Source: Yuukianura sp. NJ FZ-2021
Taxonomy: Eukaryota
Direction of reading: 5' to 3'
DNA: 64,000 nucleotides
NCBI GenBank assembly: GCA_046563655.1
Contig: CM102290.1
Coordinates: 14,570,001-14,634,000 of the forward strand
Of the stretch, positions 28,158-33,645 are shown in pieces; the first letter of the stretch is position 1; each line of letters opens with the position of its first letter. Position numbers and translations under genes: made by a program. Below the pieces are notes generated by a model, which saw nothing but the letters and a program-made list of their open reading frames with translations, was not told where the DNA came from and did not search any database.

Positions 28158-31100
28158 ATGATGACGGGGGAACCGGAAGTTGTGGACTTCTCCAAACTGT
28201 CGTTGGAAGAACGAGCAGCACATAAAGTACGATCAATTTGAATTCCTTAGCTAATTAACCACCAGTTTGACAAAGTATAACTTTGTTTTTCCTTTGTCAG
28301 AATTTCAAAGCTCGAATCAGTGCCTACGAAGATCTGATCAAGACATTTAGTCGACTGTACGATGACAAGTCTCCGGAGTGGTCCAAGTATACGTCAATTG
28401 TGAAGGCGGCTCCACTGGACTCACATGCTTCTGCTCAAGAGAAAGGCCTGGAGGCAGCTCTAATTTACATGGAGAACTCCAGTCTGGGCCCCAGACTGGT
28501 TGGTGACATGATGTCAGGGGTCATTCTGAAGTGTCTTACGTCTACGCGTGCTCGGGTCAAGGAACTGGGCACCTCCATTGTCATGATGTGTGTTGAAATT
28601 GAAAAGTTCGAAATTGTCCAAGATGAGTTGACCAAGGGACTGGACAACAAGAATCCCAAAGTCGTGACTGCTTGTGCTACAGTTTACACTCAAGCTATCA
28701 GGTAATTCGATCTAACTTTTCAAAATTTCGAAACTGAATTCTAAAATTGTGATACTTTTTCACTCAACAGAGAGTTTGGTGCTAAGATTGTCAAAGCGAA
28801 ACCTCTGGCCAAGAAACTCACTACTCTTCTGGAAGATCGTGACAAAAACGTTCGAGAGGAAAGTAAGAAGTTTGCACTCATTTTGTGGCACTGGATTGGA
28901 CCAGCATTCGGCAAGGATCTCTCAACCATCAAACCACAATTGGTATGTCCAACTTTTTTTAAATTTAAAAATTTTTGAATTTAAAAAATTTTGAATCCAT
29001 CTTTACTTAATATAATGCAGCTTACGGAACTGGAGGCAGAATATGCCAAAATCAGTTCAAGTCGACCTCAGGCCACGCGCTACCTTCGCTCAGAACAAGA
29101 GAAGAAGAACAGAGCCCCAGGCGAGGCGGAACCAGACGAAGAACCTGGTAAAATACTGGCAGTATCTCAATCAATTGTGCTGCCAATTGTGCTTAATTTG
29201 TTAACTGTTGTTGATTTTAGTTGATGGCGTGGAAGAAGTCAATCCAGACGTGGACCCATACGATCTTCTCCAACCGGAGGAGATTCTGTCCAAACTGCCG
29301 AAAGACTTTTACGAGAAGATTGAAGCGAAGAAGTGGCAGGATCGAAAAGAGACGCTGGAAGCGCTGGAAGTACTGCTCAACAAGCATCCTAAACTTGAGG
29401 GCGGTGACTACGCTGACCTTGTTCGTGCCTTGAAGAGAGTCGTATCCAAAGACTCCAATGTTGTTGTCGTGGCTCTTGCGGTGAAATGTGTCACAGGGTT
29501 GGCCAATGGTCTCAAGAAGAAGTTTTCAATCTACGCTCCGTCTGTGATGGGATCCCTTCTGGAGAAGTTCAAAGAAAAGAAAGGAGTTGTTCTCAATCCA
29601 CTCAAAGATGCTGCTGATGCGGTCTACTTGTGTGTAAGTGCTTAGTGTCCAGTTGAAAGTTTTAAGTTCACAAAAAACTGTTGTTTTGTTTTTTGTTGCA
29701 GACATCGCTGGAAGCGATTTCCGAAGATACGATTGCTGCTTTGCAGAACAAAAATCCTGCTATGAAGGTTGAAGTTGCGCTGTTCCTTAGTCGTGCCTTT
29801 TCTAAAACACCAAACAAAGTTTTTCAAGACAAAAAGTTCATCAAGACCTTCATCACTCCGCTGCTGGCGAATCTCAACGAATCAGGTATGTTTAACATAA
29901 GTGCTGCACAACCTAACCTACATGGTGTACATTATATGTCTAATATTATTTTATGCATAACATAACATAAGTTATGTACAAGTTATGTAATTTCTTTGAC
30001 AACTTTCAGATTTGGCAGTTCGTGATGCTGCTGCAGAAGCACTCGGTGTGACTTACAAAGCAATGGGAGAGCGTGGAATTACTCCGTTCTTGGCCGATAT
30101 TGAGCCACTGAAGCTTGCTAAGGTAAAATATAAGAGAAAGTTAAAGTGAGATTAACTTAAGTTAATTAGTTAAGTTAGTTAATTGATTAAGTTAGTTGAT
30201 TGATGAAGTTAATTAATTGTTGTTGTGTTTATAGATTAAAGATTTTGCTGAGAAAGCCGTGGTCCTTCCTCCAGCCAAGGCTGACGCCAAACCCAAAGTG
30301 GTCAAACCAGCTCCAAGTACTGCCAGCAAGCCAGAAAAAGAGGCTGGATCCAAAGCGTCGACGACTGTCGCTGGCCCCAAGAAGTCCGGCGCAACAATCA
30401 AGAAGCCATCTACGACCACTGCAGTTCCAGCTCCCGCTGCCAAGAAAGTTTCAAAACCAGAACCAGATTCTAACAGTAACTACGGGTTTGCTCCACCATC
30501 AAGTCGCCCCTCAACGGCCGCCACTTCCGACGACTCCTCCACTTCTGTTCGTCAACAGCCACCGCCAAACCCCAACGCTCGAGTTGACATCACGACTAAA
30601 CTGGGCGAAGGGCTCCTGGAGAAAATGGGCGACAAGGACTGGAAAAAGCGTGAAGAGGCTCTGGAGAAGCTCCACTCGATTATCATGGAGCATCCGAAGA
30701 TTGGACCGTACTTGGGTGACCTCACTGGTGCTATTTGTCAGCGTCTCCAAGACTCCAACCGAGGAATTGCCCTCATCGCTTTTCTCGTTCTCCAAAACTT
30801 GGCAACTGCTCTCGGTCCAAATTGCAAACAGCATTTACGTCAATTCCTCCCCACGATTCTGAGTCAACTGGGTGAAAATCGGGTGAGTTTGAATTCAAAA
30901 CTTAATTTTTCGGAAACTTGAAACTTTTTTAAACTGAAAACTTGAATTGTTTGAATTTTTAACATTTGAAGGTCAATGTGCGTGGAAATGTGCTGGGATG
31001 CTTGAGTGCATGGGCAGACCAGACGAGTTTGGAAGAATGTTTTCAAGGAGAAATGATCACTGATGGGCTCAAACAGCCAAGTCCACTCTTACGTTCAGAA

Positions 31101-33645
31101 CTTTTTTGGTGGTTGTCACCGCGCATGAAAGTCAGTAAGTTTTCAAAAAAAAAGTAAAATTTTCTTTTGGGATTTTGAGTTTTGATGAGATTGTGTCATG
31201 ACGTTGCTTTTTTTTTTTTGGTAAAATGTGACTCATGTTCATTTTATGTCTTTTCAGTGAAAAATCCTAACAAGGATGACATGGCCACTGCTCTGCCCGT
31301 TCTTTTTAGCAGCATCGAAGACAGAAACCCCGAAGTTCGACGAAGTGCCAATGACTGTGTTCTGGGATTTATGATGCACCTTGGATATGACCGCATGAGT
31401 CACCAGGCCTCCCGCCTCAAGGTATTAGCCACGCACACTTACTTGGAAAGTGACAAGTCATGAAACTAATTACTTTGGTTGATTAATTGATTTTTACAGC
31501 CTGCTTCAAAGAACGCCGTCATGCAGGCTCTTGACAAAGCCCGGATTCTGTTACCAGAAAAAGAGAAACCAAGCGGCACCGGATCGACTCCACCTCGCGG
31601 CAAAACTGCCACCGGAAGTCGCTATAAACCGTTGAAAGCGACGGCGTCTCCAAACGCCCCTGGTTCTGCTCGTCAACAGGGCTCCAGCGGCGGAACGACG
31701 CCACAAAACTCCTCACCTCCCACTCCGAATCTCCGAAGTCCCATGCAACCGGTAAGTATTGAGTTATTCGATTAATTGTGATTAATTCATGGTGATTTTA
31801 ATCGTGATTTGGATTTGACAGAATCGGAGTCCGTCGTCCAGCCATGGAAGTGTTGAGACTTTGGTAATTTCTCCGCCGCCGCTGACTCCACTGGAGACTG
31901 ATTCTGTTGATATCATGAGTGCCGAAGGGCCGATGCCAAGTCAACGAAACCTTGAAATGTAACCTTAACCTTTAATACTTTATGATTAATCTTAATTAGT
32001 TAGTTAATTAAGTTAGTCCTTCACGTTTTAACTTTTTGTAGTGATGACTGGAACGGCCTACCACATGAGTTCCGAATTGATTTTGGTGGGATTGAGCGAA
32101 AGTACACAAAAGTGCGAGAGCCAATGCCACCGTTGGTTCTACTTCCAACTCGAACTGACTTCCTTGACGAACCAGTTCGTATTCCGCAGACTCGCCATCA
32201 AACGTAAGAGTGTTTCAAAATTTTGAAAATTTAAAGAAAAAAATGTTCAGAACAGTTAGGTTTTGTTTTTGATTTAGCTCCTCCCTTTCCGGAACTCCGC
32301 GAACTTCTCCAGAGAGCAAGAAGAATTTGCCAGTTCGAGCTGTGGAGACGATTGACATGATCATCGTCCAAGTTGCCAATTCTGATCTGAAGAAGAGCAT
32401 GGAAGCGCTTGTGCAACTGGAAGAAGTTGTGCAGGACAGCCAAGTGACCGAGGTGAGGCTTTTGTTAGTGTAATGTTAGGCTAACATACGTTAAATACTG
32501 TCCTCATTGGCATTTTTCTTTTCTGTTCTTTTGCAGTTCATGCTCACAAGAATCGATCAGCTGTTGGTTTGCATCACGATGCAAATGCGAAAAATCCTGC
32601 CGATCTTTGATACTTGCGATGAGAAGAAAATGGTCGAGGCTGAACAGGCGTTCATGTGTGTTGCCCAGGTTCTTCAAGCGGTAAGCAAGGTTGATTGCTT
32701 TGCTTTAAACATGAGTTGCTTAATTAATTAGTTAATTGAGTAAGTGCTAATTGATTTCTCGTTTAGATCTACAAACAAGTTGAGTTACCGCGTCACGTAA
32801 CCCTGGAGACCATCAAGGACATGATCCACGTTTGTCTCCTGGTCCTCGCTCACCCCACGGTCACACGGCTCGAAAGTGCTGAGGAAATGGTGCGCTATTT
32901 TAACATTTTGGTCGTCCGGATCATCGAGCGGTCGGACCTCAACCTCTCCGTTTGGTAAGCAGCTCAAATGCTCAAAATTATTTGATCCAAAAGTGAAAAG
33001 GTCAAAAAATAAAAATGTCAATCGCTACAAATAGTAGGTTTGGTTATGCTAAGGTTTCTTATGTTTGAGTTTGATCTCAATTTTTCACCGTTTCACTTTT
33101 TGACCTTATTACACGGAACTGCTGAAGTGCTGAAAAATTTCAAAACAAAAAAACAAAAACTAGTAAAGTTATAACTATTTTTGCTAAAATTTCGTAAGTT
33201 GAGCGTTTTTTTTTACTTTTTCAGTGCATGCATGCGCCTCATGACTGACGCTCTGAACTTGCCGCACTTCAACCGAATCCTTGACCTGACGATGAAGTGT
33301 CAGTGGAAAGTTCTGAAGCAACTGACGGCGTACATGGACTCCAAGGTAGAGTACGATTATGACATCAGTGCATTTCTCCAAGAGTTTCATATCTTCATCT
33401 GTTCGCACCCATTTACGTCCTGGAAGGATCGGGACGGCACGCCACTCAAAACCATGAAAACGGTCGTCCACAGCATCGTCACCAAACTGGGTCCAGCCAA
33501 AGTGCTGGCCATTCTACACCAAACGCCAGCACTCCTCCACTCCGATGCTGGCATCTACTTGCAGAAACTGATTGATCGCGAACTGAACATGCCATCGGAA
33601 GGCCAAGCAGGCGAAGGGCCCTCTGTCCTGGCCCCCACTGCTTAA
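28158..33645 (+). CDS. CKAP5: XMAP215/ch-TOG/mini spindles family microtubule polymerase, shortened (~1310 aa, 17 exons)
   Basis: Exons 28158-28226, 28301-28701, 28771-28942, 29021-29147, 29221-29633, 29702-29885, 30010-30122, 30235-30882, 30972-31134, 31258-31421, 31500-31751, 31822-31958, 32042-32203, 32278-32452, 32537-32680, 32767-32954, 33225-33645 sum to 3933 nt in frame. TOG1 ([18 protein letters not shown]), TOG2 ([16 protein letters not shown]), TOG4-like ([24 protein letters not shown]) and C-terminal domain (IIVQVAN, MKCQWK, PLKTMKT). Confidence 0.93.

Follow-up and report, generated by a model that had tools for sequence, protein, structure and literature searches.

Domain architecture of a springtail XMAP215 protein

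Our analysis of a 64,000-nt window of the springtail Yuukianura sp. NJ FZ-2021 (assembly GCA_046563655.1, contig CM102290.1, positions 14,570,001 to 14,634,000 of the forward strand; "the window" is this whole stretch, and all positions are counted from its first letter) identified an XMAP215/ch-TOG/Msps homologue at 28158-33645 (+) with the predicted domain array TOG1-TOG2-TOG4-TOG6. We favour the reading, at a probability of roughly 0.78, that this gene is the springtail orthologue of XMAP215/ch-TOG/Msps, that it lacks TOG3, TOG5 and the four-helix bundle through an old loss shared among springtails, and that TOG4 and a basic linker work on the lattice side of the protein. A first-pass annotation, made from the letters of the DNA alone, had described the array as TOG1-TOG2-TOG4; that order stands and was incomplete, as a C-terminal TOG6 (172 bits against a TOG6 profile) extends it to TOG1-TOG2-TOG4-TOG6.

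Spliced by script, the gene comprises 17 exons with a coding sequence of 3933 nt, giving 1310 amino acids (aa) and one terminal stop, so that the coordinates, exon count and length of the first-pass annotation (17 in-frame exons, about 1310 aa, no stops) were all correct. Every exon has an AG acceptor and a GT donor, and the introns are all GT-AG. Fifteen of the 16 introns measure 68-124 nt, while intron 16 measures 270 nt; the earlier claim that the introns are too short to hide a TOG of about 250 aa therefore holds, although not all of them stay below about 120 nt, introns 6, 9 and 16 being 124, 123 and 270 nt long. The features of the gene are as follows.

28158-28226, 28301-28701, 28771-28942, 29021-29147, 29221-29633, 29702-29885 (+): exons 1-6 (splice model)
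30010-30122, 30235-30882, 30972-31134, 31258-31421, 31500-31751, 31822-31958 (+): exons 7-12 (splice model)
32042-32203, 32278-32452, 32537-32680, 32767-32954, 33225-33645 (+): exons 13-17 (splice model)
28158..33645 (+): whole gene, predicted array TOG1-TOG2-TOG4-TOG6 (splice model, end-to-end springtail alignments, synonymous differences)
28158..28942 (+): exons 1-3, TOG1, aa 6-228 (Pfam PF21041, TOG1 class profile, tree)
29021..30122 (+): exons 4-7, acidic linker 1 followed by TOG2, aa 271-506, whose final residues are encoded by exon 8 (2QK2 match, TOG2 profile, tree)
30235..30882 (+): exon 8, which takes in the end of TOG2, the basic linker 2 (aa 507-606) and the first half of TOG4; expected site of TOG3 (open reading frame, 4QMH match)
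30972..31751 (+): exons 9-11, remainder of TOG4 (to aa 837) and start of the Ser/Thr/Pro-rich linker 3 (4QMI/4QMH, TOG4 profile)
31822..32203 (+): exons 12-13, linker 3 and conserved post-TOG5 segment; expected site of TOG5 (intron sizes, Xenopus match)
32278..33645 (+): exons 14-17, TOG6-like domain at the C-terminus (aa 991-1289) and, from there to the stop, a tail of 20 aa (TOG6 profile)

Identity of the TOG domains

Boundaries of the TOG domains were taken from solved-structure matches on the Apis cerana protein, and the five TOGs were cut from an alignment of 11 named five-TOG proteins. After removal of three truncated segments and a sponge protein, 9-10 sequences per TOG class remained for the class profiles. 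A per-TOG maximum likelihood tree was built from 54 domains of seven of the 11 reference proteins and of non-canonical proteins; in it, every class formed one clade, with support of 98-100 in the Shimodaira-Hasegawa-like approximate likelihood ratio test (SH-aLRT).

The third TOG (aa 607-837) was assigned by three kinds of evidence. Exons 8, 9 and 10 match, in order, residues 11-111, 114-165 and 170-221 of solved TOG4 structures, exon 8 with an E-value of 3.8e-22 (4QMH, fly Msps; exon residues 116-216), exon 9 with 1e-8 (4QMI, human ch-TOG) and exon 10 with 5.4e-11 (4QMH), while the strongest structures of other classes were a TOG2 at 5.3e-6 and a TOG3 at 0.1. Class profiles gave 241.7 bits for TOG4, 41.7 for TOG2, 8.1 for TOG3 and no match for TOG5. 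In the per-TOG tree, the domain fell inside the TOG4 clade (SH-aLRT 98), not with TOG3 or TOG5, a grouping that the first-pass annotation had named as fatal to its assignment of this domain to TOG4. By all of these sequence comparisons the third TOG is a TOG4 orthologue. Crystal structures of the TOG4 class have a bend across HEAT repeats D-F as their hallmark.

The first two TOGs are of the classes expected from their order. TOG2 (aa 271-506) scored 324.3 bits against its class profile and fell in the TOG2 clade (SH-aLRT 99), and exon 5 matched the fly Msps TOG2 structure 2QK2 at 5.1e-43. TOG1 (aa 6-228) scored 267.6 bits against the TOG1 profile and fell in the TOG1 clade (SH-aLRT 99), with matches to Pfam PF21041 (XMAP215/Dis1/CLASP TOG) in exons 2 and 3 (8e-33 and 6.6e-11). 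Since a search of solved structures in PDB with the TOG1 exon returned no match at E 0.01, TOG1 is identified by Pfam, by its class profile and by the tree. At the C-terminus, aa 991-1289 scored 172.3 bits (independent E-value, iE, 5.7e-54) against a TOG6 profile derived from the 11 reference proteins (residues 1500-1800 in Apis numbering). TOG6 is a recent name for this C-terminal domain, which is described in the excerpts of PMC13376574 as binding gamma-tubulin as well as gamma-TuRC, the ring complex of gamma-tubulin.

With the Trp and Lys positions taken from the W21A/K102A construct given in the same excerpts (PMC13376574), TOG2 and TOG4 were seen to keep the tubulin-binding Trp of the first HEAT-repeat loop. 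In TOG1, this Trp is replaced by Phe (28301-28309, aa 24-26), and Arg stands for Lys at the position of XMAP215 K102. The same loop position is Trp in the springtails Allacma and Orchesella and in all four five-TOG proteins of that alignment, and no variant is listed at the Phe site among the public contigs aligned to the window.

Linker 2 consists of 100 aa rich in Lys, Pro, Ser, Thr and Ala, with 16 Lys/Arg and a net charge of +9; the same linker carries +6 and +8 in two other springtails. By charge count it thus has the basic character of the family's inter-TOG linkers, and lattice binding is a prediction from this charge.

Absence of TOG3, TOG5 and the four-helix bundle

Because one open frame, that of exon 8, contains the last residues of TOG2, the basic linker (about 100 aa) and the first half of TOG4, TOG3 is missing inside one uninterrupted exon. 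In five-TOG arrays, TOG5 has an additional HEAT repeat at its N-terminus and lies between TOG4 and TOG6. At the expected site of TOG5, exon 11 (end of TOG4 and linker), exon 12 (linker) and exon 13 (post-TOG5 segment) are parted by introns of 70 and 83 nt, too short for a TOG. Exon 13 weakly matches residues 1448-1491 of Xenopus tropicalis CKAP5 (E 0.067). This order agrees with the earlier statement that the linker runs straight into the segment that follows TOG5.

DNA-level searches for TOG3, TOG5 and the four-helix bundle covered the 64-kb window. In its six frames the TOG5 profile found no match at iE < 0.01 and the TOG3 profile solely a weak cross-match on the TOG2 exon; tblastn of the full-length Apis and Xenopus proteins against the window found neither TOG3 nor TOG5 at E < 1. 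When the class profiles were run on the model itself, no domain scored best for TOG3 and none for TOG5. Together with the exon structure, these negatives bear out the first-pass claim that both domains are missing.

The four-helix-bundle profile found nothing significant in the model, in the two other springtail proteins or in the six frames of the window. Elsewhere it gave scores of 87.5 bits for a flea protein and 48 bits for a protein of the amoebozoan Planoprotostelium, and the flea protein serves as a positive control that the profile works. We considered an eighteenth exon carrying a TACC-binding helix and rejected it. The candidate, an open reading frame at 34768-34800 (+), 1.1 kb downstream of the stop, weakly matches the TACC-binding helix at the C-terminus of Xenopus CKAP5 (E 25, with identity at 7 of 11 residues). 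It overlaps the end of the coding region of DUF829, a convergent gene, and its splice phase is wrong, the only candidate acceptor seen needing a donor phase unlike that of the lone GT near the end of exon 17. The resemblance is probably due to chance. The protein of Orchesella dallaii has an extra tail of 100 aa with a similar TACC-helix-like motif, and this tail is absent from the other two springtail proteins.

Evidence against an artefact

It is conceivable that the missing TOGs are concealed in collapsed sequence, gaps or unrecognised exons, but several observations make such an assembly or annotation artefact a very improbable source of the short array. The window holds no N, and TOG2, linker and TOG4 form one open exon. 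Public DNA contigs were inspected for gaps that might hold the missing TOGs, an outcome that the first-pass annotation had said would overturn its reading: an 11.6-kb contig of run X2 (same sample as run X1) spans 28102-33700 without a single gap, and contigs of run X5, from a different study, cover both critical junctions (30069-30884 without gaps, and 31891-32253). The colinear proteins of two independently annotated species (see below) also argue against an artefact, as does the nature of the differences between contigs and window. There are 37 listed single-base differences, 26 in the coding sequence and 11 non-coding, and 25 of the 26 coding ones are synonymous, the other being a conservative change (K182R). 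This predominance of synonymous changes in the predicted frame supports both the reading frame and purifying selection, and purifying selection points to a working gene rather than a decaying copy. An artefact is close to refuted.

Two irregularities were seen among the same contigs. In run X5, a single low-depth contig links the end of exon 8 (30884) back to intron 1 (28281), a backward jump of 2604 nt, which is probably a graph artefact of a 7x assembly. In intron 16, the sole long intron, summed contig depth rises about 13-fold at 32962-33148 (2873 against about 218, run X1), with several back-joints and loose ends, and this intron seems to hold a short dispersed repeat.

The same architecture in other springtails

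A search with the TOG2 exon found the predicted springtail proteins CAG7828433.1 of Allacma fusca (1308 aa) and CAL8111536.1 of Orchesella dallaii (1403 aa). Both align to the model in a single high-scoring segment pair, the Allacma protein over query residues 10-1290 (subject 7-1290) at 44% identity and the Orchesella protein over query residues 7-1309 (subject 4-1303) at 43%. Both are TOG1-TOG2-TOG4 by class profile, plus TOG6. No TOG5 profile match was obtained on the Allacma protein; the Orchesella protein has two weak TOG5 cross-matches (16.4 and 11.6 bits), which lie within its TOG1 and TOG4, and no domain that is best matched by TOG5. Identity of these two proteins to the model is 53-55% in TOG1, 62-64% in TOG2, 45-49% in TOG4 and 38-40% in TOG6, and the linkers are poorly conserved with their charge character kept. 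The proteins (Allacma fusca CAG7828433.1/CAG7828432.1 and Orchesella dallaii CAL8111536.1) are thus colinear over their full length with the same array as the model, and differ from it in the Trp of the TOG1 loop and, in Orchesella alone, in the 100-aa tail.

Moreover, five shorter springtail-related database fragments (P0001, P0002, P0012, P0019 and P0305) run from TOG2, or from its linker, directly into TOG4. For P0002 a tandem TOG4-TOG4 arrangement was considered and dropped, the N-terminus being best aligned by BLAST to the linker at the end of TOG2. Loss of TOG3 and TOG5 looks, from these predicted proteins, to be common to springtails and not a quirk of one gene model. As three distant proteins share the architecture, the loss most likely predates the divergence of the three springtails, and we regard it as a probably old, lineage-wide domain loss.

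Orthologue, paralogue or split gene

In a tree of concatenated TOG2 and TOG4 from 24 proteins, the three springtail proteins grouped together (SH-aLRT 100) as sister to the insects (98) within the hexapods (95); a tick and other animals fell outside this group. This position, sister to insect Msps, favours the springtail proteins being Msps orthologues; it also favours, and does not prove, that the gene is the sole, streamlined orthologue of insect Msps.

Alternatively, the gene could be a specialised, shortened paralogue, with a canonical five-TOG XMAP215 elsewhere in springtail genomes doing the housekeeping. The scope of our searches leaves room for this: the protein searches took in candidates of up to 2000 aa, or the best 150 or best 120 matches, and the DNA search took in the 64-kb window. 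Duplicated or odd arrays also exist in the family, such as T2-T2-T5 (T for TOG) in the Dermacentor albipictus 'mini spindles-like' protein and T1-T2-T2-T5 in the sponge Halisarca dujardinii. Against a paralogue stand the placement of the springtail proteins in the TOG2+TOG4 tree, the appearance of each named springtail species once, with the short architecture, among the best 120 TOG2 matches, and the absence of springtails (0 of 7) from the seven named proteins among the ten top full-length TOG4 matches. A search of longer proteins with the TOG4 half of exon 8 had no significant match among 347 candidates, which carries little weight, since a limit of 2000 aa leaves out most five-TOG proteins. 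XMAP215 is normally single-copy in animals. On balance we think a paralogue unlikely.

Less likely still is a gene fission, in which TOG5 and/or the four-helix bundle would be kept as a separate gene whose product cooperates with the XMAP215 protein. Nothing speaks for it directly, and what allows it is that the DNA search was confined to the 64-kb window. On the other hand, linker 3 leads directly into the post-TOG5 segment and TOG6 in each of the three springtail proteins, in the manner of a clean internal deletion, and no match to TOG5 or the four-helix bundle was obtained in the 64 kb around the gene. A single orthologue that lost the two TOGs and the bundle is accordingly the reading that we carry forward.

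Comparison with known arrays

The members of the family known from the parts of PMC4142611 and PMC6251626 drawn on here have two TOGs in yeasts, three in C. elegans ZYG-9 (the last of TOG5 type) and five or six in other animals, and TOG1, TOG2 and a TOG5-type domain are seen there, and in the excerpts of PMC5461023, as the parts always kept in evolution. With XMAP215, ch-TOG (CKAP5) and Msps, which have TOG1-5, TOG6 and the four-helix bundle, our model shares orthologous TOG1, TOG2, TOG4 and TOG6 in the same order and a basic inter-TOG linker. It differs in being without TOG3 and TOG5, in that the four-helix bundle was not detected, and in its length (about 1310 aa against about 1900-2100 aa).

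Like C. elegans ZYG-9, the springtail protein combines a shortened TOG array with a TOG6-like domain after it. Unlike it, the springtail protein keeps TOG4 and lost TOG5, whereas ZYG-9, going by the same sources (PMC4142611, PMC5461023), keeps the TOG5 type and lost the TOG3 and TOG4 types. The homologue of Caenorhabditis angaria was classed as T2-like, T2-like and T5 (270.7 bits on TOG5) with a weak TOG6 match. A last canonical TOG of TOG5 type, the mark of the ZYG-9 type, is therefore not what is seen in springtails, where the third TOG is of TOG4 type.

Deletion constructs of Msps offer another comparison. In fly S2 cells, deletion of TOG5 lowers the polymerisation rate while deletion of TOG3 and TOG4 does not, and TOG1-TOG2-TOG5 is the minimal fully active Msps array (Byrnes and Slep 2017, excerpts of PMC5461023). 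Loss of TOG3, tolerated for polymerisation rate in these constructs, has a likeness in the springtail protein, which is likewise without TOG3. At the same time, the springtail array corresponds to a natural delta-3, delta-5 protein, for which the constructs described in those excerpts (PMC5461023) would predict impairment.

TOG3 appears to have been lost or eroded in other arthropod XMAP215 proteins as well. TOG3-less forms (Xenopsylla cheopis A0A6M2DFG6 and two contig-derived proteins) pass from TOG2 to TOG4, as in springtails. They keep TOG5, unlike springtails; the flea protein also has TOG6 and the four-helix bundle, and these forms grouped with insects and not with springtails. Among the proteins concerned (P0106, P0007, P0138, P0008 and P0011), the flea transcript product and the two contig-derived proteins read T1/T2-T4-T5 and Cimex has a weak TOG3 (84 bits); Rhodnius gave no TOG3 match above the 60-bit cut-off. 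The TOG3-less arthropod forms could be isoforms, mis-assemblies or independent losses. Further unusual arrays, which may reflect errors in gene models, are those of Halisarca dujardinii (CKAP5/XMAP215) and Dermacentor albipictus given above, and T1-T2-T4 with TOG6 and the four-helix bundle in Planoprotostelium fungivorum (proteins P0273, P0272 and P0048 for the three species).

A full-text search found no literature on Collembola TOG domains or springtail XMAP215, subscription journals lying outside its coverage, and in the broader literature on TOG number and evolution, with the same coverage, nothing describing a TOG1-TOG2-TOG4-TOG6 array was found. The first-pass annotation had allowed that the architecture might already be documented in related taxa. 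This is true of database predictions ('TOG domain-containing protein'), and a published description was not found.

Proposed mechanism and points against it

The domain order, TOG1, acidic linker, TOG2, basic linker, TOG4, Ser/Thr/Pro-rich linker and TOG6, would fit the following mechanism. TOG1 and TOG2 would capture free, curved tubulin and deliver it to the plus end, as across the family, while the basic linker 2 (+9) would give the electrostatic affinity that holds the protein on the lattice. TOG4 might then assume the lattice-proximal role played elsewhere by TOG5. We infer this substitution because TOG4 and TOG5, unlike TOG1-3, both shorten the nucleation lag and both are modelled as reaching laterally adjacent tubulin of the lattice, the evidence for TOG4 coming from fly and frog (excerpts of PMC5461023). 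TOG6 would maintain contact with gamma-tubulin complexes. The four-helix core and a fifth helix form the docking site for TACC3, conserved from insects to mammals (as given in the excerpts of PMC11921806); the apparent absence of the four-helix bundle suggests that TACC-dependent recruitment was probably lost or rewired in springtails.

Several points weigh against the favoured reading. A sole polymerase without TOG5 is unexpected, because deletion of TOG5 lowers polymerisation in fly S2 cells (excerpts of PMC5461023). The roles of capture, linker, TOG4 and TOG6 are inferred ones, and polymerase activity of the TOG5-less protein is a prediction. The exon junctions are based on sequence, homology and the pattern of synonymous changes. 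Loss of TACC binding is not certain, because of the Orchesella dallaii tail and the weak downstream helix match. A second, five-TOG gene, or a separate gene for TOG5 or the four-helix bundle, is possible beyond the 64-kb window that was searched. Lastly, Phe in place of Trp could, judged from the loop alignment, weaken TOG1 of this species.

Genomic neighbourhood

PFAS, identified by Pfam at 20557-26790 (-), is the divergent neighbour of the XMAP215 gene at 28158-33645 (+). Its nearest named relatives are in Allacma fusca (89% identity) and Orchesella cincta (85%), followed by insects (72-79%), which by itself makes a springtail other than these two species the most likely source of the window. 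In Allacma fusca the accessions of the TOG protein and of PFAS differ by two and both belong to a contig of 47,771 nt, and the PFAS-XMAP215 pairing appears to be conserved there; in Orchesella dallaii the two lie on different contigs. Other neighbours are a DUF829 (TMEM53-like) gene at 34780-36211 (-), convergent with the XMAP215 gene, a family-8 glycosyltransferase at 38995-40356 (+) and an ABC transporter membrane domain at 15050-15975 (-). GC skew is strongly positive (+0.17 to +0.33) at 1-10000 and 52000-62000 and close to zero across the gene-rich middle; the tandem arrays detected in these two flanking regions were all short.

Significance

What is new here is the description of the springtail TOG1-TOG2-TOG4-TOG6 array, the XMAP215 family itself and the sequences, as database predictions, being known. 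TOG array architecture in arthropods is more variable than textbook schemes have it, TOG3-less forms occurring also in a flea and among contigs placed with the insects. We see about even odds for the wider proposition that springtails as a group use a single XMAP215 without TOG3, TOG5 and the TACC-binding four-helix bundle, in which TOG4 and the basic linker do the lattice-side job of TOG5. If true, this would be a natural counter-example to the view of TOG1-TOG2-TOG5 as the minimal polymerase array that is conserved, and would suggest that the pathway of TACC and centrosome recruitment is rewired.

The XMAP215 field has yet to settle how polymerase and nucleation activity depend on the number and kind of TOGs, and the springtail array is of interest as a naturally occurring experiment on which TOGs a polymerase requires. 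The springtail lineage would offer a natural deletion series in which to ask whether TOG4 can stand in for TOG5 at the lattice, whether the linker is enough, and how polymerase and TACC meet without the docking domain.

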